A DNA stretch of 32,577 bases from Bdellovibrionota bacterium (GTDB lineage: Bacteria > Bdellovibrionota > Bdellovibrionia > Bdellovibrionales > JAEYZS01): positions 1-32,577 of the forward strand of contig CAUJEF010000145.1 in the NCBI GenBank assembly GCA_963169515.1, written 5' to 3'. Shown here piece by piece: positions 2,727 through 28,638 of the stretch (the first letter of the stretch is position 1; every line of letters starts with the position of its first letter). The notes under the pieces are model-generated. The model worked only from the letters and a program-made list of their open reading frames with translations, made no database searches and had not been told where the DNA came from. A program made the position numbers and the translations under genes.

Positions 2727-3995
2727 ATGAAAAAGCTTATGTTTGTCGTCGCTAGCTTAGCACTTGCTTCAATAGCAATGGCTGCCGATGGCACAGAGAC
2801 AAAATTTAGCGGCGAGCTTCGTGGCCGTTACTTGATGGCGGATAATCCATCTATGGCGCCAGATGCGACTGCAGACGGATCGTCAGGATGGATGCAAAGA
2901 ACTAAAATGGGCGTAACATTCTCAAAAGGCGAAGACCTAATGGGACAATTTACCTTTATGCATAACGCCAATTGGGGGGATGCTGCAAACGGTGGTGCTG
3001 CAAACGGTGGTGTTGCTGCGGGAACTTCCGATGTGTGGGCGTCTGAAGCATGGGGATTTTGGAAAGCTACAGACAACTTTTCTCTACGTATTGGTCGTGG
3101 TGGATTTCAAATCGCGGATGGATCTGTTGTTGGAACAAACGACTGGGCTGAAATGCCAAAAGCATTTGAAGGCGTTTTGGGTACTTGGTACACAGAATTT
3201 GCCAACATTCATGGGTTTGGCGTAAAAGGTGTTGATAGCACAGGAGCTGTCGGAACAGACACTCCAGAAGCGAACTTTTACGGTTTAAGCTTTGATGTTA
3301 AAAACCTTCCAGAAGCTCTTAAAATGGCGAATGTTCACTTCTTGCAAATTAATTCGCATGATGTCATTGCTGCAGGTATGATGACAAATACACTTCGCTA
3401 CGGACTAACACTTGGCGGTGGTCTGAATAACTTCGACTATCGTGCAACTTATGCAGGCTATTCTGGTGAAGCAAAAATGGGTGCAACCTCAGCAGATATG
3501 ACGGGTTCAATGTTTGATGTTGAAGCAGGTTACACCTTACCAGACTACATGAAATGGCACTTCGGTGTTCTTTATCATATGGATTCTGGCGAGGATGCTG
3601 ATGCCTCTAAAACAACCCAGTACGACCCATTCCATTACAACGAACATGAAAATGCAGGTTTAATGGATGTCATTGCTTGGGGTAACTCAACTTACATTAA
3701 AGTTGGTACTTCTATCGCTCCGTGGGAAAATTCAGTGATTGGTTTGGACTACTATATGTTCAGCCTATCTGAAGAAGCGGATACTGTGAATTATCAAACA
3801 GCCGGCTACGGTGCTGCTCGAAATGCAACACTCAGTGACGCTGTTGGTTCAGAGATCGATTTCTATGCTACAAAAACATACGCAAACGGTTTCTCAGCAG
3901 GTCTTCGCTACGGCGTTTTCACTCCGGGCGACTACTACGTAGACACTGCCGAAGCAGCAAGCCAATTCATGCTTGAAGGCAAATTCACTTTCTAA
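2727..3995 (+). CDS. Alginate-export-family outer-membrane beta-barrel (porin-like)
   Basis: AAGGAG RBS, signal peptide, N-terminal FSGELRGRY, RIGRGGFQIADGSVVGTNDW..AFEG segment, GSEIDF, C-terminal Phe. Codon bias suggests high expression. Confidence 0.75.
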   Translation: MKKLMFVVASLALASIAMAADGTETKFSGELRGRYLMADNPSMAPDATADGSSGWMQRTKMGVTFSKGEDLMGQFTFMHNANWGDAANGGAANGGVAAGTSDVWASEAWGFWKATDNFSLRIGRGGFQIADGSVVGTNDWAEMPKAFEGVLGTWYTEFANIHGFGVKGVDSTGAVGTDTPEANFYGLSFDVKNLPEALKMANVHFLQINSHDVIAAGMMTNTLRYGLTLGGGLNNFDYRATYAGYSGEAKMGATSADMTGSMFDVEAGYTLPDYMKWHFGVLYHMDSGEDADASKTTQYDPFHYNEHENAGLMDVIAWGNSTYIKVGTSIAPWENSVIGLDYYMFSLSEEADTVNYQTAGYGAARNATLSDAVGSEIDFYATKTYANGFSAGLRYGVFTPGDYYVDTAEAASQFMLEGKFTF

Positions 3996-4130: not shown

Positions 4131-4634
4131 ATGAGATGTTTTTTGTTGATATTCTTTGTGGCTATTTCGTGTCCAGCAAAGGCTAAGGCATCTAAAAAAG
4201 CCAAGATCGATTTAAGACCCACTACAGTAAAAGAACTTACGCAGGTTTTCAGTCAGGCAGAACGGCTTAGGCAATTCATGTTTGAATCCAATGGGCCATT
4301 AGTCGGCGGACAGCTTGAATTTTTAAAAGTGTCGATCCAAAAAGCAATGAATGCGAGCAAAAGTGAAAGCGTCAAGGGTCAACACATCAGTCGATTGTTA
4401 CTTTCTGCGCAAGATAGTCTGACAAATGCGCAGAATACTTCGGGCAAACAAAAAACTAAATTTATCCAAGATGCTTTCAAACAGCTTGTAATCCTGTATC
4501 AAACTTACCAATTGGATTTAAAATACACGATTTATTGGTGCCATATCGATCGAAGTATATGGTTTCAAAAGGGATCAAAAGCACAAAACCCTTTCGAGCC
4601 GCGATCAAATTGCGGCCGTGTTGTAACCAAATAG
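4131..4634 (+). CDS. Secreted protein with a DUF3347-associated-like C-terminal motif
   Basis: Signal peptide. C-terminal YWCHIDRSIWFQ...NPF...CG resembles the YCPM..W....I.NP....CG motif of DUF3347-containing proteins. Confidence 0.55.
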   Translation: MRCFLLIFFVAISCPAKAKASKKAKIDLRPTTVKELTQVFSQAERLRQFMFESNGPLVGGQLEFLKVSIQKAMNASKSESVKGQHISRLLLSAQDSLTNAQNTSGKQKTKFIQDAFKQLVILYQTYQLDLKYTIYWCHIDRSIWFQKGSKAQNPFEPRSNCGRVVTK

Positions 4635-4641
4635 GAACCTG

Positions 4642-5244
4642 ATGAATAACCTACCCCGAGCGATGTTGGTTGCGCTTGGCCTAGCCGGCGGATTAATACT
4701 CATCTACCTGGTGACTCCCCCCTTTACGGCCTGTACGGCTCAGTACGAGGTTATTCAGAAGTCTTTGACCCCGTATCTATATCTGGACCCAAGGAAAAAA
4801 CATATCGTTAAGACAGGGATGCAAAAATCCGTTGAAGATTGTAAATTAACGAATAACTCCGGTGGATGTTTCCCATTTTTTGAAGGCTCTCAAAAAATGG
4901 TGCATGAACTAAGGGTGGTGAGCCCCGAGTGTGCGGCAGAAGTTTTGGAGAAATCCGAAATAAAAAGTGCTTTGTTCCAGTCGACTCGTTTCATGGTAGC
5001 TTTAGCTTGGGGAGCAGCCCCACCGAAATCTGAATTTGAACGTGACGGATGGTACGACAACTTGAATAAAGCAATTTTTTGTGAGTTGAAAACTTTTTTG
5101 CAAAACAACTTCAAAGATGATTGGGCAAGTTTCATTGACGAGACCCTTCAGTCGTTACCCGGCTCCAACGAACTTCAGGGCCCAAAGGGATGGCGGGAAG
5201 CGACCTGGAACCGTACCATCTTGGCAAATCGATGTGATTTTTGA
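4642..5244 (+). CDS. Hypothetical membrane-anchored Cys-rich protein
   Basis: N-terminal TM helix, several Cys, operon spacing, ATGA overlap with the next gene. Confidence 0.7.
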   Translation: MNNLPRAMLVALGLAGGLILIYLVTPPFTACTAQYEVIQKSLTPYLYLDPRKKHIVKTGMQKSVEDCKLTNNSGGCFPFFEGSQKMVHELRVVSPECAAEVLEKSEIKSALFQSTRFMVALAWGAAPPKSEFERDGWYDNLNKAIFCELKTFLQNNFKDDWASFIDETLQSLPGSNELQGPKGWREATWNRTILANRCDF

Positions 5245-5642
5245 TGAACCAAAAACGCGATTTAATCCAAATTTTAATTTTTCAACTGCTCACTGTTCCT
5301 GCCGTAATTTTTATTTTCAAGTTTATCGAGCCCCGCCAAATTGCAGCACTTTTAGCAAGCTTTACGTTCATTTCATTTGGCGTTTTTGGGTTATTTAAAA
5401 TTACAAAATGGCCGGCCTTTAAATGGGATATTTTATTTTGGCTTTTTTGTATTCACTTGCTTGTGATCTCGCTTCCGACATTATTCGTTCGGCTGTTAAA
5501 TTGGTCTTCTGACTTTGCCACTCTGCATATCTTTAGTATTCCGGCCCCTGTTTTTCACAAACTAAGCGAGCGATTTGCCATGATTATGATGGTGGTGGTT
5601 TTGATTAAAATTTATAGACTAAGGTCCCCGAAGGCAGGCTGA
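5241..5642 (+). CDS. Hypothetical integral membrane protein (about 4 TM)
   Basis: Four hydrophobic segments; coupled to the upstream gene. Confidence 0.7.
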   Translation: MMNQKRDLIQILIFQLLTVPAVIFIFKFIEPRQIAALLASFTFISFGVFGLFKITKWPAFKWDILFWLFCIHLLVISLPTLFVRLLNWSSDFATLHIFSIPAPVFHKLSERFAMIMMVVVLIKIYRLRSPKAG

Positions 5643-5775
5643 GCCTAGACTTAGTTACCGCAATCGCCGTTCTTTAATTTTTAGCCATCTAATTTTGATA
5701 TTTTTCTTGGTCATTTTGTGTAATCAAACCCACTTAAAAAACCGAAAAAGATACAAGAAAATAGGGGATTTAAAT

Positions 5776-7266
5776 ATGTCAGAAGCCAGTAAAAAAGATG
5801 ATCAAACGCGTGTTTCCAAAAGTAAAGCATTTCGATTTCGTGAATCTAGAATCACACTACCTGAAAAATTCAGTTCGCACGCACTTTTAAAAAACTTCTA
5901 TGGCGATGAAGTCACCGCAAAGGTAGTAAACCTTTCTCAGTTTGGTGCAAGGATTGAAGTCGATACAAAAGATTTTAATTTGCATAAAAACGAATTAATA
6001 AAAGAGGCGAGCGTTTTTGTAAATCACACAAAAGTATATAGCGGCTCCATCAAGGTTGTGAACGAGGCACAGATCGACATAGGCAGGATCGCATATGGGA
6101 TTATTTTTAACGACGATGGAATTGACGTCGAAAAGGTTCGAGCTATCTTAGAGATGGATGGCAAAGAAGATGAATTCATTATTACCACAAGAAACTTTGA
6201 ATTATCAGATCTGGTTTCCCCCAGATTCAAAGAGCTTGTCGCTGATTTAAACACCGTTTTGCAAGAGGTGAGGATAAAGCTTCTGCACGAGGAAATGAGA
6301 ATAAAGGACGCGTATAAAGACGGAGCGTATCAGCAAAGCCTTTGTGAGCACGCCATCTCCATTGCCTTTTCTGTTTACGGTCCGGAAGTAAATCGAATTT
6401 TTTCAAAATTCCAAGAGCTGTCATCTAACTTTGTTGGTGACGAAATTTCTATTCATAAGAAATATTTCCGAATCAACTTTCATCCAATTTTAATGGCCAC
6501 TCCGTTCGTTAATCGGAGCTTCACAAAACCACTCGGTTACTCTGGTGACTATGGGCTAATGGTAATGCTGTACGAATACGAGGACCTTGGGGGAAATCTT
6601 TTTGACAAGTTTTTTCACCGTTTTTGTTGCAATCAAATTGTTACGCTTGCAAACAAAAATCGGGTAGAGGTGCTTAGCCAGTTGATCGTTGAAGATTACA
6701 CAAAATGCTCAAAAAAAGCGGATGAATTTAAAATTTCTAGTATTGCCTGCGGACCCGCACGAGAGATTCAACTCGCGTTGGATAAAATTGAAAATGATCA
6801 TGGGCCTCGAATTGAGATAAAGTTGATAGACAACGAACCTATGGCGCTAGAACACGCACGAAGAAAATTGAGTAAAAACCTGGTGAGTAGGAATTGCAAC
6901 ATAGAGTTTTTCCAAGAAGATGCCATACTCGGTATAATAAAAAAGAGACCGTTTGCAAATGAAATGGAGAATTCTGACGTAATAGTTTGCGCAGGCCTAT
7001 TTGATTACCTAAGCGATAGGGTGAGCGCGAAGCTTATTGAATCGCTATTCGCAATGCTTAAGCCTTGTGGCAGACTTTTAATTGGTAATGTTTCAAAATC
7101 AAATCCAGATCGCTTCTCAATGGAGTATGGGTTGGACTGGCATTTGGTATTAAGATCCAAGGACGATTTATTGAATCTTGTCCCAAGTTCGATAAAGGCA
7201 GCTGCGAAAGTAGATGTTATTTCAGAATCTTTAGGGGTGAACCTGTTTTTGAGCATTATAAAGTAA
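5776..7266 (+). CDS. PhcB-like class I SAM-dependent methyltransferase with N-terminal PilZ-like beta-domain
   Basis: Start reassigned to ATG 5776 (AGGGGA RBS). PilZ-like RFRESR...NLSQFGA; family motif KPLGYSGDY; SAM motif SIACGPAREI; AGLFDYL; LKPCGRLLIGN; LDWHLVLRS. Confidence 0.8.
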   Translation: MSEASKKDDQTRVSKSKAFRFRESRITLPEKFSSHALLKNFYGDEVTAKVVNLSQFGARIEVDTKDFNLHKNELIKEASVFVNHTKVYSGSIKVVNEAQIDIGRIAYGIIFNDDGIDVEKVRAILEMDGKEDEFIITTRNFELSDLVSPRFKELVADLNTVLQEVRIKLLHEEMRIKDAYKDGAYQQSLCEHAISIAFSVYGPEVNRIFSKFQELSSNFVGDEISIHKKYFRINFHPILMATPFVNRSFTKPLGYSGDYGLMVMLYEYEDLGGNLFDKFFHRFCCNQIVTLANKNRVEVLSQLIVEDYTKCSKKADEFKISSIACGPAREIQLALDKIENDHGPRIEIKLIDNEPMALEHARRKLSKNLVSRNCNIEFFQEDAILGIIKKRPFANEMENSDVIVCAGLFDYLSDRVSAKLIESLFAMLKPCGRLLIGNVSKSNPDRFSMEYGLDWHLVLRSKDDLLNLVPSSIKAAAKVDVISESLGVNLFLSIIK

Positions 7267-7273
7267 TTTAGAT

Positions 7274-8716
7274 ATGAAAAAAGAACTTCCAGGGACCTAC
7301 ATCGAATATGAACGTGAAGTTCACATAAGACGGGCAAGACAAGCGATTGTATATTTTGCCATCCCGGCCGTATTGATATGGACTATTGTGGATCGTTTTT
7401 ATGTTCCAGATATCATGATGGAATTCTTTTTTGTTCGTTTATTGGTTATCCCCGCAGCTATAATTACTCTAATTTTGTTCCGTCAAAAAAATATTATTTC
7501 GCATGACAAGCTTTATACAGTTCCGTCATTTTTTATGATCTTTTTTATTGGTGTCTATTCTGCCTATTTATGTTATCGGACGGGATTTGAAGAGTCGATT
7601 TATTATGCGGGTATAAACTTAGTTGCAGTAGCACTGTTTGGATTTGTACCCTGGCAACCATATCAACTTTTTATTTTGCCATTTTTGCTTTACTTGCCGT
7701 GGGGGGCAATGCTTTTTTTTAAATCAAGTCAGCTCAATATGGCGATTCTGGTCCCGCATACGGCATTTATGGCTTCAACGGCAACAATAGGATTCGGAAT
7801 CTCGTTGATCATGCGAGCGATTCGAATTAGCGATTTTAAGGCAAAAGTGAGGTTGGATAACGAACTGAAGACCAAGGAGCAGGTTATCGCCCGCAAGACC
7901 AATGAGGGCATATATCTCGAAAAACTTGCAAGCCAGTTTTCCCCACAAGTTATCGATGCAATCAAGAACGGAAAAATATCAATTGATGCCAAAGTAAGAT
8001 CTGAAATATCATGCATCTTTATTGACATAGAAAATTCAACGGACAGATCTGGGAAAATTGATCACAATGACTACCTCGATACGATCACAGAGTTTTTTAA
8101 TAATTGTATAGAAATATTACTAAGGCATGACATTACAATTGGAACTTATCTGGGGGACGGAATGCTTGCATTTGTAAACGCTCCTCAAAAACGCGAAAAT
8201 CATCCCTTGGTTGCAATAGAGGCATGCTTAGATATTCTAAGGGAGCATGACTCGAAAAGAAAATACTACTTTGAAAAGTGGCGCAGGGATTTCAACGTCA
8301 GAATTGGCATAAATACCGGGTACTCATATGTCGGCTTTTTTCCAAGTTATAAGCGGGGAACGTATACAGGGATGGGTGATTCTGTAAATTTGGCATCAAG
8401 ACTGTGCACAAGAGCTACTGCCAATACGATATGCGTCTCCAAAACCTTTATGAAAAGAATCGTTCAAAGCGCGCCGAGTGTTGAAATTATCAAAACAGAA
8501 AGAGTAAATGATCTAAAGGGTTTTGAGAGTGAGCAAATTGAAATTTTCCATCTACGTCATAAAAACACAATTTCGATTCCTTCTGCAGATCTGTGCCCCA
8601 TGTGCAAAGGCAATTTCACAATAGAAGCCGATCTGGGGGTCTCGCTTTATTTAAAGTGTCCTTCGTGCGGCTTCATAGATCTTAGGGACAAAATTCATAA
8701 GAAAAAAGCTGCCTAG
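7274..8716 (+). CDS. Membrane-bound class III adenylate/guanylate cyclase with ~6-TM sensor and C-terminal Cys4 ribbon
   Basis: Hydrophobic N-terminus; catalytic motifs FIDIENST, YLGDG, RIGINTG and GDSVNLASRL; C-terminal CPMC...CPSC. Confidence 0.88.
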   Translation: MKKELPGTYIEYEREVHIRRARQAIVYFAIPAVLIWTIVDRFYVPDIMMEFFFVRLLVIPAAIITLILFRQKNIISHDKLYTVPSFFMIFFIGVYSAYLCYRTGFEESIYYAGINLVAVALFGFVPWQPYQLFILPFLLYLPWGAMLFFKSSQLNMAILVPHTAFMASTATIGFGISLIMRAIRISDFKAKVRLDNELKTKEQVIARKTNEGIYLEKLASQFSPQVIDAIKNGKISIDAKVRSEISCIFIDIENSTDRSGKIDHNDYLDTITEFFNNCIEILLRHDITIGTYLGDGMLAFVNAPQKRENHPLVAIEACLDILREHDSKRKYYFEKWRRDFNVRIGINTGYSYVGFFPSYKRGTYTGMGDSVNLASRLCTRATANTICVSKTFMKRIVQSAPSVEIIKTERVNDLKGFESEQIEIFHLRHKNTISIPSADLCPMCKGNFTIEADLGVSLYLKCPSCGFIDLRDKIHKKKAA

Positions 8717-9678
8717 TGTTTTCTTAACTTCATGTCGATTAATGTTTTGCTAGGTGCTTTTGGTAAGGTTACTAATTTCAGTTCACTCAGAACTAATAAC
8801 AACCAGTGCGATGGATCTAAATGTCGTTTCAAAATGTCGTTTCTGTGCGAGTTGGGAAAGGCGTGGTGGGTGTTGTGCCATGATCCCCCCAGGGTAGGGA
8901 TGAATAGCAATAGATTATTTTTACTGTTGTCGTCCGTACTAAAATCAGTTGCTCCCCAAATATGACAAACAGAGTTGATCATCCAGGTAAAGTGCTGTGT
9001 AAGCGTCAGTCGAACAATCCCTCCCAAAAGGATTCCTTTGGCCAAGAATGTTGGATTTTGACCAGAAATAAAATATGCAATCACGCCTGGAAGAAGAATT
9101 CCGAGAAGTACATTTACAAAGTAAAATCGATCAAACTTGCGAAGTGTTTTATCTGTCAAAAGATCTTTCAGGTAAAGGTTTGGATTTGGATATGGATATC
9201 GTAATTTCCATAGAATATGTGATCGGATGAATGTCTTGAATGTAACTTTGCCGTTGGAATCATAAGGGGAGTGGGTATCGGCTTTGCTGTCGCTATATGC
9301 ATGATGGTGTCGATGAGTTGCCGCCCACGAAGTAATTGTACCTTGCCCTGCGATGTGGGTCAAAAATGCCAAAACGAATTTCACAGATGGTGTGGCGGTA
9401 AATGCTTTGTGCGAAAACAACCTGTGGAACCCCAGCTCAACTCCCACAGCGGTAAGAAACCACATAAACGCAAACACACCGAGATCTAACCAGCCTATGC
9501 CTAAATGAACAAGTATGGGTATTGAGATCAGAGTTAAAACAAGAGGCAAAATATCCATAAGATAAAAATGTACCTTCTGTGCTCTATAAATTGCCGGGTG
9601 CGAGAGAAAGGTTCGGCGTGTTAGCTCTATTCTTTGCTCTGTGATGCCATTGAACTGGCTGGTTTTTTCGTCTTTCAT
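8713..9678 (-). CDS. Membrane fatty-acyl (acyl-CoA) desaturase
   Basis: Three His boxes (HRLFSH, HRHHH, HNTHH), DTHSP, and INSVCHIWG. Its stop overlaps the cyclase stop (CTAG 8713-8716). Confidence 0.92.
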   Translation of the reverse strand: MKDEKTSQFNGITEQRIELTRRTFLSHPAIYRAQKVHFYLMDILPLVLTLISIPILVHLGIGWLDLGVFAFMWFLTAVGVELGFHRLFSHKAFTATPSVKFVLAFLTHIAGQGTITSWAATHRHHHAYSDSKADTHSPYDSNGKVTFKTFIRSHILWKLRYPYPNPNLYLKDLLTDKTLRKFDRFYFVNVLLGILLPGVIAYFISGQNPTFLAKGILLGGIVRLTLTQHFTWMINSVCHIWGATDFSTDDNSKNNLLLFIPTLGGSWHNTHHAFPNSHRNDILKRHLDPSHWLLLVLSELKLVTLPKAPSKTLIDMKLRKH

Positions 9679-10902: not shown

Positions 10903-11628
10903 TTACTGAGCCTTTTGCCAGCAGAGCTTGGCGGTTTCTGGCTGAAGATTTTCAGACTCCGTAAGGCATTTTTCAGATTGGCTAACCTTGGTCATTTCTT
11001 TTTTCATTAGCTTTTTCATTGTGCCGCTCATTGCTCGGACCCACCATCGAAGCGGATAGACGATTGAAATCTCTCTTGCGATGACTCCACCGGGGGCCTT
11101 TTCTAAGACTTTTAGGTTATCCCGCAGGGCAAAGTTTTTTTTGTCTTCTGACAATGGCGCACGGACAAAATAAAAATTTTCAATCTGTCGGCCCCTATAT
11201 TGGAGCGTAAAATCTTGGTCTTCAATGCCAGGGACCTTTTTTTGCAATCTTCCTAAAAACATTCCACCGACTGGATCGTTTACCTTTGATGGGCCGTCGA
11301 GCCCATAGGCAAACTGAAACAATTGCGGAGAGTTTAAAAAATCACGATAGGTTTCGAACTTGGTTTTAGCAAAAGATTGAGTGTGCCCAATTCCAATTGT
11401 AAATGTGTCGTTGTCAATTGCTAAAACTTCGCTGGTTACAACTGTTGATGGCTTCGAATCAGGGGAAATTGGGGGAAACACATTTGGGTTTTCGTTTATG
11501 AATTTTGTCCAGGCCTGAGCGGTTGCGAGCTTATCCAGGCGGGCATTAAAGTTTTTTAAAATATGCTGGTGGGTGGGGGTAAGGTCAAAGCCCAGTGCAA
11601 AATTTACTAAAAAACAAAATAAAATCAT
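10903..11628 (-). CDS. Secreted hypothetical protein coupled to SPT; possibly START/SRPBCC-like
   Basis: Signal peptide; starts 2 nt after the SPT stop; beta-rich core with a long C-terminal amphipathic helix. The fold is an inference. Confidence 0.6.
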   Translation of the reverse strand: MILFCFLVNFALGFDLTPTHQHILKNFNARLDKLATAQAWTKFINENPNVFPPISPDSKPSTVVTSEVLAIDNDTFTIGIGHTQSFAKTKFETYRDFLNSPQLFQFAYGLDGPSKVNDPVGGMFLGRLQKKVPGIEDQDFTLQYRGRQIENFYFVRAPLSEDKKNFALRDNLKVLEKAPGGVIAREISIVYPLRWWVRAMSGTMKKLMKKEMTKVSQSEKCLTESENLQPETAKLCWQKAQ

Positions 11629-11630
11629 GA

Positions 11631-12905
11631 TTACGAAAATAGATCTGCCGCCGAATCTGGGGCATGATTCAGGCGCGAATCGCCACTATCCAAATTGTCA
11701 GCGAGCGCGGTATCGTTATCTGCCAGATTGTTCGCTTCCGCGATCATTGGTGCGAGCTCTTTAAATGCGGCAATGGCTTTGTCCAAATCTGCACGTGTAT
11801 GGGTTGCCATAACCGAGCAACGGATCAAAGCGTGGCCCTTTGGAACGGCCGGGTATGGGACCGGTGTTGTGAAAATTCCTCGTTGTAGCAGTTCCTGGCA
11901 AATTACTAATGACATCTCGTCGCTGCCAATGAATACAGGAACCACACAAGTCTCTGAACCAAGGGTGTTCAACCCGATATCATCGAAGGCCTTTTTTAAA
12001 TACGCTGCGTTTGCCTGAACATTATCCACACGTTGGGGCTCTTCTTTTAAAATACGAAGGGCCTTAAGAGCAGACGCTGTACTCGCCGGAGAAAGCGCTG
12101 CAGAAAACATGAATGTGCGCGATTTAACCCGCAACCATTCTGTCAAATCCTTAGACCCGCAAATATAACCACCTTGGCTTGCCAACGATTTCGAAAATGT
12201 GCCCATAAGAACATCTGGTTCAATTTTAAAATGACTTGGAGTCCCTCGACCGCCGACGCCGATTACACCCAGGCCGTGAGCGTCGTCAACATAGGTGCGA
12301 GCGTTGTATTTTTTTGCAAGCTTATGGATACGATCAAAAGGGGCTATGTGTCCGGTCATACTGAATACGCCATCAGTGATAATTAGCTTACCCGCGTCCA
12401 GTGGAACCGATTGGAGAAGTTGTTCCAAATGTTCCATATCTCCGTGTCTATAAACCAGAACATTTGCCCGAGTCAGGCGACAGCCTTCGATGATGCACGC
12501 GTGGTTTTCAAAATCAGAAAAAATGTAGTCGTCTTTTTTAACCAACGCGCCAATAGCGCCTTGGTTTGCCATAAATCCAGTTGCATAAACTAGGGCGGAT
12601 TCTGTACCAAAAAAACTGGCAAGTTCGTCCTCAAGTTCTTCGTGAAGTTCGAGGTTACCATTTAGAAAGCGCGACCCAGTGCAACCGGTTCCCCATTTGT
12701 GGATGGCATCGATAGCGGCCCCCATCACTCGAGGATCGTGCGTGAGACCCAGGTAATTGTTCGAGCCCATCATCACAAGTTCTTGGTTATTGAAAAAAAC
12801 ATTTGTGCCGCGACTGCCTTGAAGACGTCTAAAAAACGGATACATTCCAGAAGATTTCAGCAAACGAATGATCTCTAGACCTTTAAACTTGTTAAACAAA
12901 TCCAT
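11631..12905 (-). CDS. spt: Serine palmitoyltransferase (PLP alpha-oxoamine synthase family)
   Basis: Start reassigned to ATG 12905 (GGAGG RBS). YPFFR, GSNNYLGL, GTGCTGSRFLNG, DDAHG and GTFSKS PLP-lysine motif typical of bacterial SPTs; adjacent to a CerS-like GNAT. Confidence 0.82.
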   Translation of the reverse strand: MDLFNKFKGLEIIRLLKSSGMYPFFRRLQGSRGTNVFFNNQELVMMGSNNYLGLTHDPRVMGAAIDAIHKWGTGCTGSRFLNGNLELHEELEDELASFFGTESALVYATGFMANQGAIGALVKKDDYIFSDFENHACIIEGCRLTRANVLVYRHGDMEHLEQLLQSVPLDAGKLIITDGVFSMTGHIAPFDRIHKLAKKYNARTYVDDAHGLGVIGVGGRGTPSHFKIEPDVLMGTFSKSLASQGGYICGSKDLTEWLRVKSRTFMFSAALSPASTASALKALRILKEEPQRVDNVQANAAYLKKAFDDIGLNTLGSETCVVPVFIGSDEMSLVICQELLQRGIFTTPVPYPAVPKGHALIRCSVMATHTRADLDKAIAAFKELAPMIAEANNLADNDTALADNLDSGDSRLNHAPDSAADLFS

Positions 12906-13104
12906 GCAAAAATCCGCCTCCAAAAAGGTCGCTTTTATAAAAAGCGTACCCCCCCATGACACTATCCGAAAAGCATTTCTTATAGACCGTTTTAAATGGT
13001 TTATCGATAAGAAAATGTAGCGAGGAATATTTTTTTCTACTCAACGCAGCACTTTACGGTAAATAATAATAAGAACGCCAATTTTTAGAAAAAACAAGTG
13101 TTTT

Positions 13105-14280
13105 TTAATGCTTAGGACTACTGAGCGGTGCCTTTTCAAAAATACGATAAACCTTACTGTGTTTTCCACCCATTGCTTTTGAAAGCTCGTTCATTGGACC
13201 GTTGTTGGCAAGTACCCATGACACTTCTGCCGAAGGGTAACCGTGGCGGGGGCCACGTTCGAACATATCTTTCACAAGTAGGCTTCCAATCCCCAGCCCG
13301 TGCGCCTCTTTAAGAACACCCAGCGCGTATCCGCGCAGATTATTTACGTATTTTTTTCGATTCATGAATTTTAATATAAACCCGGGCGTAACTTTACCCC
13401 TAAAAGGTTTGATCAAAGGGTTATAGTTTGGAAGCATAATCAAACAGCCGACGGGCTTGCCATTAAGCATGGCAATAGAAACAACGTCCGTGTCTAGAAA
13501 CATCTTCATCATCATGACCATTTCATTGATTTGGTCCTCAAGGAACTCTTCAAAACCCCAATTTTTAGAAAGCGCATCGTTGAATATTTCAGAAATAATT
13601 CTTGATTCATCGTATAGTTTTTTTCTATTCACCGTTCGGATTGTTACGCCGGCTTTGGTGGATTCTTCGGCATTTTTATACAGCGAGGGTTCGAGAGGAT
13701 TTTTGCTATGAAGTTCATACGTAAATAGATCCATAACTTTTGTAAATCCGGCTTTTTCCAAATAGTCTTTGTAGTATGGCGGATTGTAGGACATAAGGAA
13801 AAATGGATCCTGATCAAATCCCTCTGTAAGAACGCCAATATAAGGGTCTTCCATGCGGAAGTGATGCGGTCCAATGACTTTCAAGTTGGGGTAAAGTGCA
13901 TGAACAGCATTAATAAGTGCAAGCGTTGCATCTTGATGGCCTTCAAGACATTCATAAAAACCAAAATTTAGCGTGGTATGATTACCGTATTTGTGAACTT
14001 TTGCTGCGATTCGAGCGACGGTAGCTCCATTTTTTCGTGCTAAAAACAGATGCTTTTGCCCTTGCCCCAGCTTTCCAATCATCATTTTCATGTGGAGGTT
14101 AAGGGGTTTAACATAGCGGGTATTTACGTCTGTATAGATCTGATCAGGCAGGTTCAAAAAATCACGATAGTTCTTGCTGTTTTTTACTTCAATTACCTCG
14201 ATTTGGCCAGGCCCCCATGATTTTTGTTGGCTTGTTTGGTTGTTTGTTTGACTGTTTGTTTGTTCGTGCAAAGAACCCAT
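13105..14280 (-). CDS. Double-GNAT protein of the YghO / bacterial ceramide synthase family
   Basis: ARIAA, FGFYEC, MSYNPPYY..YLEKAGF.K..DL, NWGF, SWVLANN.PM and KVYRIFEK motifs. Start probably ATG 14280. Confidence 0.78.
   Translation of the reverse strand: MGSLHEQTNSQTNNQTSQQKSWGPGQIEVIEVKNSKNYRDFLNLPDQIYTDVNTRYVKPLNLHMKMMIGKLGQGQKHLFLARKNGATVARIAAKVHKYGNHTTLNFGFYECLEGHQDATLALINAVHALYPNLKVIGPHHFRMEDPYIGVLTEGFDQDPFFLMSYNPPYYKDYLEKAGFTKVMDLFTYELHSKNPLEPSLYKNAEESTKAGVTIRTVNRKKLYDESRIISEIFNDALSKNWGFEEFLEDQINEMVMMMKMFLDTDVVSIAMLNGKPVGCLIMLPNYNPLIKPFRGKVTPGFILKFMNRKKYVNNLRGYALGVLKEAHGLGIGSLLVKDMFERGPRHGYPSAEVSWVLANNGPMNELSKAMGGKHSKVYRIFEKAPLSSPKH
14226..14264 (-). repeat. Low-complexity CAAA-rich repeat encoding QTNSQTNNQTSQQ
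   Basis: Imperfect 12-nt periodicity at the N-terminus of the GNAT gene. Confidence 0.55.
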
Positions 14281-14413
14281 TGTGTAACCCCGCCTAGCCT
14301 TAGGACCTTTGACCATTGCATACATCCTTTCGTGGGGCACGTCATCATTTTTTTGTTCCTTGCTAATTTTGATGTTATAAGAATTAGTGAATCCATATCA
14401 AGGAGAGAGCGAG

Positions 14414-28092: not shown

Positions 28093-28638
28093 CTAACCGG
28101 GTTGTAGTAACTCCCTTTGCCTTTGAATTAGAACCTTTGCAATATCGCGCTTGATCCCCCGTCCCTCTAAGCGGTTTACTTTAATATAGTCCTTTAAAGT
28201 TAATCGGGATTTCCATCCTACCACGACTCGGGTAAAGGGCCGCAAATCCCAAAATCTTTTTATCCCTGCTTCTTCCTTTGTCTTCCAGCGGCTAATACCC
28301 GTCACCTTCATAGCAATCGCCGCCGTTACAGCGCGAATAAAAGGTTTATAGGTGTATCGATTCGTAAGCTTTATTTCTAAGTGAATATGGTTTCCGACAT
28401 TGGCTCCGAAAAGCAATTTGACCCCGTATTTTTCAGCAAATCTTCTTAGAATAGACCTGATATTTTCTTTATTTTTGGGTTCAAGAAAAGACCATTTGCC
28501 CTTGGCATGTGTAGATCGAAGGACCAAGTGCATGGTTTGTCTGGTGGCAATGGGTCTACCCGAGGCCCGTCCTTTTCTGGTTTTAAGAAGTTCACCTCCA
28601 TAGGCGAGTTCTTGTTTTTTAAAAAGCACTTTTTGCAT
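28093..28638 (-). mobile_element. HUH (Y1) transposase-like protein, IS200/RAYT superfamily
   Basis: MHLVLRS, GNHIHL HUH motif, FW..RPFTRVV, and DYIKVN with catalytic-type Tyr. No TnpB partner or clear IS ends. Confidence 0.8.

Follow-up and report, generated by a model that had tools for sequence, protein, structure and literature searches.

In the Phc quorum-sensing system, phcBSRQ encodes a methyltransferase (PhcB) and a six-transmembrane (6-TM) sensor histidine kinase (PhcS) followed by PhcR- and PhcQ-type regulators, and class III nucleotide cyclases such as Mycobacterium tuberculosis Rv1625c/Cya and Pseudomonas aeruginosa CyaB carry N-terminal membrane anchors that have remained orphans. 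We analysed a 32,577-nt stretch of DNA (the window) from a Bdellovibrionota bacterium (contig CAUJEF010000145.1) in which elements of both occur side by side. A PhcB-family S-adenosylmethionine (SAM)-dependent methyltransferase of 496 amino acids (aa), a putative signal synthase identified by its open reading frame (ORF), Pfam, hhalign and BLASTP (5776..7266, + strand), is followed by a 480-aa receptor-cyclase (7274..8716, +) that combines a PhcS-type 6-TM sensor, a coiled linker, a class III cyclase domain and a C4 zinc ribbon. We consider it probable that the locus encodes a Phc-type synthase-receptor pair in which a class III nucleotide cyclase has taken the place of the receptor's histidine kinase, giving a cyclic-nucleotide output.

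Compared with phcBSRQ, the window has a homologous full-length methyltransferase and a homologous 6-TM sensor with the same invariant D, R and G columns, and in both systems the synthase precedes the sensor with tiny or overlapping spacers; identity is about 30% for the methyltransferase and 16-20% for the sensor. However, a class III cyclase and a zinc ribbon stand in the window where PhcS has its HisKA/HATPase kinase, and the pair is not followed by PhcR/PhcQ-type regulators. The fusion also resembles the engineered CqsS-Rv1625c chimera, in which, according to the available part of Beltz et al. 2016 (PMC4821796), the 6-TM domain of the Vibrio CAI-1 quorum receptor was joined to a mycobacterial class III adenylate cyclase: both have the 6-TM domain of a lipid-autoinducer receptor, a linker and a class III catalytic domain under direct control, which for the window is a prediction. 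While the chimera is man-made and uses a CqsS-family sensor, the window fusion is natural, of the PhcS family and located beside a putative ligand synthase. Rv1625c/Cya and CyaB (PDB 3r5g) likewise have an N-terminal membrane anchor, a homologous catalytic domain (CyaB, E = 1.4e-14) and a class IIIb-type Thr. In contrast to their orphan anchors, for that of the window a receptor homologue and a candidate source of the ligand can be named, and its cyclase differs from theirs by Thr291 in place of the substrate lysine and by the extra C-terminal zinc ribbon.

On sequence comparison, the product of 5776..7266 is a member of the PhcB family along its full length. We built PhcB and PhcS profiles from 77 sequences each, taken from Burkholderiales loci that include five Ralstonia spp. 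and Cupriavidus necator. When 15 methyltransferases of the window's phylum were aligned with the 77 PhcB sequences, hhalign returned a probability of 100 (E = 1.1e-66) over 448 columns, spanning aa 35-494 of the window protein and positions 10-460 of the 468 in PhcB. A PhcB-only hidden Markov model (HMM) matched a single one of the window's 153 frames, that of the methyltransferase (E = 1.6e-59), and BLASTP aligned only the C-terminal ~270 residues with the orthologues of Ralstonia sp. R-29 (31% over 269 aa, E = 4e-44) and Paraburkholderia (30-31% identity over ~270 aa, E = 1e-46). An earlier note on this DNA had called the gene PhcB-like, a description that these searches extend to the whole protein. 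Pfam matched class I SAM models at aa 293-453 (Methyltransf_31, E = 1.4e-7; CheR, E = 5.4e-7), and in an AlphaFold2 (AF2) model with a predicted local distance difference test (pLDDT) score of 90.7 a beta-barrel (aa 26-111) is followed by a helical domain (aa 118-312) and then by a Rossmann fold, the SAM-binding core being encoded at 6652..7134 (+). Foldseek with the full model retrieved generic small-molecule O-/C-methyltransferases, which gave no functional lead, and an NCBIfam scan found no specific family. A word-indexed search returned 1909 relatives among 8000 scored candidates, many of them with the JGI name 'extracellular factor (EF) 3-hydroxypalmitic acid methyl ester biosynthesis protein', which we take to be the KEGG orthology name of phcB. 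The PhcB orthology name on relatives of the methyltransferase (JGI) is thus already known, while the cyclase is named only generically in databases, with ten receptor-cyclase representatives carrying only 'adenylate/guanylate cyclase' names. A full-text literature search on PhcB with Bdellovibrio and on PhcS with adenylate cyclase, which did not cover subscription journals, found no description of this arrangement.

By profile comparison, the membrane domain of the receptor-cyclase (aa 11-199; 7304..7870, +) is homologous to the sensor domain of PhcS. Kyte-Doolittle hydropathy resolved six hydrophobic spans at aa 21-183, in keeping with six TM spans. When 15 cyclase N-termini were compared with 77 PhcS N-termini, a check that had been set for the proposed resemblance, hhalign gave a probability of 99.5 and E = 2.7e-23 over 186 co-linear columns, against control values of 0.05-0.56 (reversed target, E = 0.31; five column shuffles, E = 0.052-0.56). 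An HMM made from the cyclase TM region alone matched 78 of 3158 Burkholderiales ORFs with E-values of 2.4e-24 to 1.8e-9, and no other ORF up to E = 10; the three matches listed are kinase ORFs, and 78 equals the number of kinase-bearing Burkholderiales loci. A PhcS-only HMM, in turn, found 40 matches among 850 ORFs of the window's phylum, all of them cassette membrane proteins, and its sole match among the frames of the window was the cyclase (E = 4e-10). In the joint alignment of cyclases and PhcS proteins, the invariant columns are D40, R55 and G113, and two more, F51 and Y110, are nearly invariant. The TM motifs that had been likened to the PhcS input domain from recall contain these very columns (the D of VDRFY, the R of FVRL and the Y/G of YYAG), which both receptor types share. 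The extramembrane loops of the sensor are very short, and its conserved polar residues are intramembrane. Pfam found only Guanylate_cyc and weak zinc-ribbon matches on the receptor-cyclase; since it has no HisKA/HATPase_c core, the protein is not a PhcS orthologue and shares only the sensor domain with PhcS.

No Pfam family reached threshold on the sensor domain, and a word-indexed search with this region, which is insensitive, found one close homologue only. The joint sensor profile recovered 4123 cluster representatives at E <= 0.001, of which 270 were at E <= 1e-30. We scanned with Pfam 100 among the best 149 representatives, a set that excludes the window's own protein. Of these 100, 38 are cyclases, 44 are histidine kinases, many of them hybrid, and one is a Ser/Thr-kinase fusion; the other 17, of which 16 are short fragments, matched no family, and no GGDEF domain was seen. 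The 38:44 split of cyclases to kinases is not an unbiased frequency, since the joint query mixed both receptor types. The Ser/Thr-kinase fusion represents a third output type: in P0185 (794 aa), the sensor occupies aa 350-544 behind an N-terminal Ser/Thr protein kinase domain. P0261 (1246 aa) carries a PhcS-type sensor at aa 352-546. The whole profile of MASE8 (PF20968) was weakly aligned by one orthologous cyclase (E = 0.0049) and by a Paraburkholderia PhcS-like kinase (E = 0.0044), and one close homologue of the window sensor carries a precomputed PF20968 label. The window protein itself had no MASE8 match at E <= 1, its relatives score 17.5 bits against a cut-off of 26.2, and neither MASE8 nor any other membrane-sensor family appeared at E <= 1e-4 among the 100 scanned representatives, for each of which up to five families were listed. 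Since the matches occur only in relatives and lie below threshold, we did not file the sensor domain under MASE8.

The pairing of synthase and sensor is conserved. In the window, the stop codon of the methyltransferase (TAA, 7264-7266) is separated from the ATG of the cyclase at 7274 by a 7-nt spacer (7267..7273, +), and the two genes are, judging from this layout, probably co-transcribed or translationally coupled. The ATG at 5776 is a fitting start for the methyltransferase because its homologues start ~20 residues ahead of a conserved RExR; an in-frame TTG at 5695 is also open upstream. The geometry of three ORFs given in the earlier note (a 7-nt gap, a ~6-TM class III cyclase and a stop overlapping that of a convergent desaturase) is as it described, and all motifs quoted there (KPLGYSGDY, IACGPAREI, AGLFDYL, VDRFYVP...FFFVRL and ESIYYAGINLV) are present in the translations. 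Within the window's phylum, a methyltransferase homologue at E <= 1e-20 was found in 48 of 301 genomes, counting the host genome (G000), and we examined 13-15 kb around each of the 47 other loci; the named homologues are labelled Bdellovibrionales or Deltaproteobacteria bacterium. A receptor-cyclase with a PhcS-type sensor is present in 42 of the 47. In 40 of these 42, its gene is the next one after that of the methyltransferase on the same strand (gap, -53 to +104 nt); L042 and L161 have it ~1 kb away on the opposite strand. Chance adjacency of methyltransferase and cyclase was therefore rejected. L157 has a kinase with a PhcS-type sensor in place of the cyclase, and in L143 the methyltransferase is followed by a 204-aa sensor-only ORF (6363-6977, -), which points either to loss of the cyclase part or to a broken gene. 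Beside the receptor-cyclase, the two relatives closest to the window cassette carry an extra histidine kinase with a PhcS-type sensor (L034, 9149-10516, +; L035, 3297-4532, +); in these, a phosphorelay and a cyclase may both respond to a single signal. A genome-wide sensor search found no such extra kinase in the host genome.

Outside this phylum, the same sensor is linked to other outputs. A tblastn search of PLSDB led to a Paraburkholderia graminis plasmid with a methyltransferase, a kinase and two response regulators in this order. On the same plasmid (L048), a gene of the cyclopropane-fatty-acyl-phospholipid synthase family lies ~1 kb upstream of the phcB-like gene and on the same strand (4379-5401, +). 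A genome scan seeded with the P. graminis protein yielded 80 Burkholderiales loci. In 78 of them a kinase and then two regulators come after the methyltransferase, and two loci are too short; this four-gene order matches the phcBSRQ layout given in the accessible portion of PMC13532016. In a third clade, sampled from metagenomes with a Pelagicoccus-type protein as seed, 74 of 80 loci have a sensor ORF immediately behind the methyltransferase, and the remaining six, on short or truncated contigs, lack one. A kinase core (mostly ~890 aa proteins) is recognizable in 50 of the 80 and 24 are cut by a contig end, with no cyclase output in any of the 80. Together, the linkage counts from Burkholderiales, metagenomes and the window's phylum indicate that the synthase-sensor unit is constant while the output domain depends on lineage. 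As a statement about homology and architecture, the earlier idea of a conserved synthase-receptor linkage with a rewired output is thus borne out (42/47, 78/80 and 74/80 loci).

The role of the third gene is less clear-cut. This convergent membrane fatty-acid desaturase of 321 aa (8713..9678, -) shares the CTAG at 8713-8716 with the end of the cyclase gene, an overlap of 4 nt, and was identified by Pfam FA_desaturase (PF00487, E = 2.3e-13, 50.9 bits) and three His boxes (HRLFSH, HRHHH and HNTHH); it is presumably of the Delta-9 type. The proposal of a three-gene module survives in part, in that 20 of the 47 phylum loci have a desaturase homologue no further than ~7 kb from the methyltransferase, but our tree resolves the linked desaturases into three lineages, and the window's copy is convergent. 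Of these 20 loci, 15 belong to genus g10 and one each to five other genera of five other families; none of the 81 Burkholderiales or 80 metagenome loci has a desaturase. The linked g10 genes are orthologues of the other desaturase of the host genome, on contig C149 (46-49% identity), and we rejected them as orthologues of the window's copy, with which they share 28-32%. We lean slightly towards the view that the window's desaturase is a bystander housekeeping gene and that the functional unit is the two-gene pair, a view compatible with a Phc-type receptor-cyclase. Being convergent, the desaturase is not co-transcribed with the pair; no desaturase lies within 6 kb in any of the five closest relatives of the cassette (L034-L038); and the window's copy is a long branch, sister to the C149/g10 lineage and outside the lineage that sits directly beside cassettes. 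Yet the host genome has only two desaturase genes in 2.4 Mb, which puts chance proximity at ~1% per genome (a rough figure from this copy number), and one of them ends inside the stop codon of the cyclase. Desaturases also occur within 7 kb of the cassette in six other genera of six families, and the short ones (269-327 aa) of L045, L046, L147, L152 and L155, from five families, form a supported clade of their own (98/95) within ~0.9 kb of the cassette. As far as gene neighbourhoods can indicate, such cassettes have a real but loose functional affinity with fatty-acid desaturation, and the case for the window's own desaturase as a module member is weak.

The catalytic domain of the receptor-cyclase (aa 240-402; 7991..8479, +) was assigned by Pfam (Guanylate_cyc, PF00211, E = 2.3e-14, 53.8 bits against a cut-off of 21.9), by alignment to PDB structures, of which CyaB is its closest solved relative, and by a residue census. 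It keeps the metal-binding D251 and D295, the transition-state N372 and R376, and T365 at the class IIIb position, and from sequence it looks competent. The lysine of the DKF motif in CyaB and in 1wc0/1wc1 (annotated 'ADENYLATE CYCLASE') aligns to T291, however. We take 1wc0/1wc1 to be Spirulina CyaC. An adenylate cyclase is expected to pair an adenine-specifying lysine with an Asp/Thr partner; in the window, T291 replaces the lysine and T365 is the class IIIb partner, so the product cannot be narrowed to cyclic AMP (cAMP). It is conceivable, though we hold it doubtful, that this cyclase clade no longer makes cAMP or cyclic GMP and is either a weak or inactive scaffold or a producer of another cyclic nucleotide, which would be compatible with a Phc-type synthase-receptor pair. 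The change is clade-wide, with T or S in the window and L034-L038, whereas nine more distant orthologues keep DKF, and at this position the 82 aligned rows, with the L034 kinase among them, show K in 59, T in 16, S in 2, A in 2 and N, E and Q in a single row each. Thr is also found in a second, divergent group of receptor-cyclases (L144, L150, L154, L158 and L159; signature DTDTNR) and is thus not confined to the window's immediate clade. On the other side, both metal Asp residues, Asn and Arg are retained in the 12 sequences with the signature DTDTNR, which argues that catalysis is under selection, and active mycobacterial cyclases with non-canonical substrate pairs are known.

Sensor and catalytic domain are joined by a linker (7871..7990, +) in which an L-x-x-QFSPQV-x-x-x-I motif stands just ahead of the catalytic domain. 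The QFSPQV motif is conserved in nearly all of 15 orthologues, and we presume it to be comparable to the 'cyclase transducer element' of class III cyclases. At the C-terminus, a CxxC...CxxC zinc ribbon (C441, C444, C462 and C465; 8594..8668, +) gave weak Pfam matches in the window protein and its orthologues, and all four Cys are present in 53 of the 82 aligned receptor-cyclase rows. The host genome (2.38 Mb in 173 contigs, 96% complete) contains one copy of the methyltransferase, one protein with a PhcS-type sensor, three class III cyclase domains and eight ORFs for proteins that bind cyclic nucleoside monophosphates (cNMPs). One of the eight is CRP-like, one has a zinc ribbon and six have no further Pfam domain; an effector resembling Bd1971, with cNMP-binding and EAL domains, was sought among them and not found.

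The methyltransferase begins with a domain of its own, which may put signal synthesis under the control of cyclic di-GMP (c-di-GMP), as judged from a structural model. The window protein has no Pfam PilZ match at E <= 1, and PF07238 was matched by 20 of 58 methyltransferase homologues (best E = 3.6e-5). AF2 modelling of aa 1-122 alone (pLDDT 78.8) predicts a PilZ-fold beta-barrel at aa 26-111 (5851..6108, +). When this model was compared with the PDB by Foldseek, only c-di-GMP-binding PilZ domains were retrieved at E <= 0.001 (four matches, to YcgR, BcsA and a P. aeruginosa PilZ), the top PilZ matches have TM scores of 0.47-0.68, and PilZ proteins take nearly all of the first 30 ranks. The 'PilZ-like' label given to the methyltransferase earlier is in this respect well founded. 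PilZ domains bind c-di-GMP through the motifs RxxxR and (D/N)xSxxG. R22, R25, S54 and G57 are invariant in 15 window-phylum sequences that are otherwise 13-33% identical; N52-L-S54-Q-F56-G57 fits the second motif, whereas R22-E-S-R25 reads RxxR and not RxxxR. Both motifs, conserved in the window's phylum, are degenerate in Burkholderiales PhcB and in the third-clade methyltransferases. The closest described combination is that of MapZ with CheR1 (PDB 5xly), itself among the N-terminal fold matches, in which a PilZ-fold module is likewise combined with a SAM methyltransferase. However, MapZ and CheR1 are two separate proteins with a chemoreceptor target, while in the window the PilZ fold is fused to a PhcB-type enzyme and has RxxR in place of RxxxR.

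Based on these findings, and taking methyl 3-hydroxypalmitate and methyl 3-hydroxymyristate as analogues, we hypothesize that the product of the methyltransferase would be a lipid-like methyl ester, which would partition into the membrane and be bound by the sensor domain, where the conserved intramembrane residues D40, R55, Y110 and G113 are candidate contacts. Binding would change the activity of the dimeric cyclase via the QFSPQV linker, and the cyclic nucleotide would act on some of the eight cNMP-binding proteins, such as the CRP-like one. The weakest link in this scheme is the convergent desaturase, a possible source or modifier of the acyl chain. Homology and linkage carry the model, from which we infer the ligand, its diffusibility, its control of the cyclase and the product nucleotide. 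A bolder version, which we put forward only tentatively, is that the window encodes a natural lipid-autoinducer receptor-cyclase beside its own ligand synthase, so that a self-made fatty-acid-type methyl ester would directly elicit a cyclic-nucleotide signal, possibly a non-canonical one in view of Thr291, and the PilZ-fold domain would put production of the ester under c-di-GMP control.

The same components could instead serve cell-autonomous lipid sensing. The methyltransferase would then act on an endogenous membrane lipid or fatty acid, the lipid state of the membrane (e.g. unsaturation) would be passed on by the sensor-cyclase to cyclic-nucleotide signalling, and cells would exchange nothing diffusible. 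The desaturases near the cassette in 20 of 47 loci, recruited from three lineages, would fit this alternative, as would the cyclopropane-fatty-acid-synthase family gene upstream of the Paraburkholderia phcB-like gene and a sensor with short loops and polar residues within the membrane. Nevertheless, we regard it as unlikely: autoinducer systems typically show such a strict one-to-one pairing of synthase and sensor across phyla, no desaturase was found in the Burkholderiales and metagenome loci, and the experimentally studied family members make secreted signals, as stated in the part of PMC13532016 at hand.

Several points weigh against a Phc-type synthase-receptor pair with a cyclase output. 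Identity to PhcB is ~30%, and the N-terminal half of the methyltransferase aligns at the profile level only. BLASTP of the sensor against the Paraburkholderia kinase aligned aa 33-128 with 35-130 at 27% identity (E = 2e-5) and was not significant against the Ralstonia sp. R-29 kinase (E = 0.32); the sensor homology thus rests on profiles, since pairwise similarity is weak or non-significant. The comparison set consists of orthologues from Ralstonia spp., Cupriavidus and Paraburkholderia picked by organism name and gene order, not of the experimentally studied R. solanacearum proteins. In Ralstonia, moreover, PhcS is only 'thought to perceive' the signal, and quorum sensing in strain OE1-1 is not eliminated by deletion of phcS alone, both according to the text available of PMC13532016. 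As far as can be read from the alignment, a cyclase with Thr291 where the substrate lysine is expected could be weak or altered in its activity. Three loci of genus g10 (L146, L148 and L149) have a methyltransferase without a sensor gene within 7 kb; an SLT-domain protein follows, a desaturase lies directly upstream on the same strand, and these loci may represent a receptor-less or re-arranged variant. Finally, the methyltransferase matches the Pfam CheR SAM-binding model above its cut-off (29.7 bits vs 27). That the enzyme methylates the receptor protein itself, in a CheR-like adaptation, instead of making a small-molecule ligand would agree with this match, with those of 49 of 58 homologues at E <= 1 and with the CheR1-bound MapZ among the fold matches, but it is very improbable, since only the generic SAM-binding half of CheR is matched, a PDB sequence search found a CheR chain at E = 0.18 only, Foldseek points to small-molecule O-/C-methyltransferases, the cyclase has no methyl-accepting (MCP-type) domain in Pfam, and the studied family member is described as a fatty-acid methyl ester synthase in the portion of PMC13532016 consulted.

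ORFs at 4131-5642, upstream of the cassette, matched no Pfam family, and downstream of the block lie genes for a KOW protein and the ribosomal proteins L28 and S18; a functional tie to these ribosomal genes was rejected, as related loci, as far as inspected, lack them. Between 5200 and 10000, a scan predicted 11 promoter and 2 terminator sites, against 12.1 and 3.4 expected from shuffles, and is uninformative on the limits of the operon because the counts do not exceed that expectation. Past the ribosomal genes, 10903-14340 (-) holds in a row a 241-aa ORF without an assigned function, an alpha-oxoamine synthase (Aminotran_1_2, 443 aa, serine-palmitoyltransferase/KBL-like) and a 411-aa GNAT protein, which, from their domains, may form an acyl-amino-acid or sphingolipid-type lipid cluster near the cassette. 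Elsewhere, the window contains a Zeta_toxin-domain ORF (1794-2381, -; 195 aa), an alginate-export-family outer-membrane porin (2727-3995, +; 422 aa) with three hypothetical ORFs between it and the cassette, and an IS200-like Y1 transposase ORF (28093-28638, -; 181 aa).

The receptor role of the hexahelical anchors of class III cyclases is still open, and a 2025 review speaks, in its accessible part, of a 'signal transduction blind spot' (PMC12414865); the best prior evidence for anchors as receptors is the engineered quorum-receptor/cyclase chimera, as far as the available text of PMC4821796 goes. If the bolder version of our proposal is true, the window would offer direct evidence from nature for a ligand-receptor function of the 6-TM 'anchors' in class III cyclases, and two second-messenger systems would be joined through an extracellular signal. 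Since the candidate ligand synthase is encoded next door to this natural fusion, the ligand can be sought by simple co-expression. The pair would extend Phc-type signalling beyond Burkholderiales and beyond two-component output. It is also a candidate upstream input for cyclic-nucleotide signalling in Bdellovibrio-like bacteria, whose cAMP sources are uncharacterised: the accessible section of a Bdellovibrio bacteriovorus paper (PMC6717892) lists the four annotated adenylate cyclases of that species as such. Altogether, these findings point to a possible cell-to-cell signalling system of the Phc type in the Bdellovibrio-like group, in which a cyclic nucleotide may be the direct readout of a lipid-like signal.

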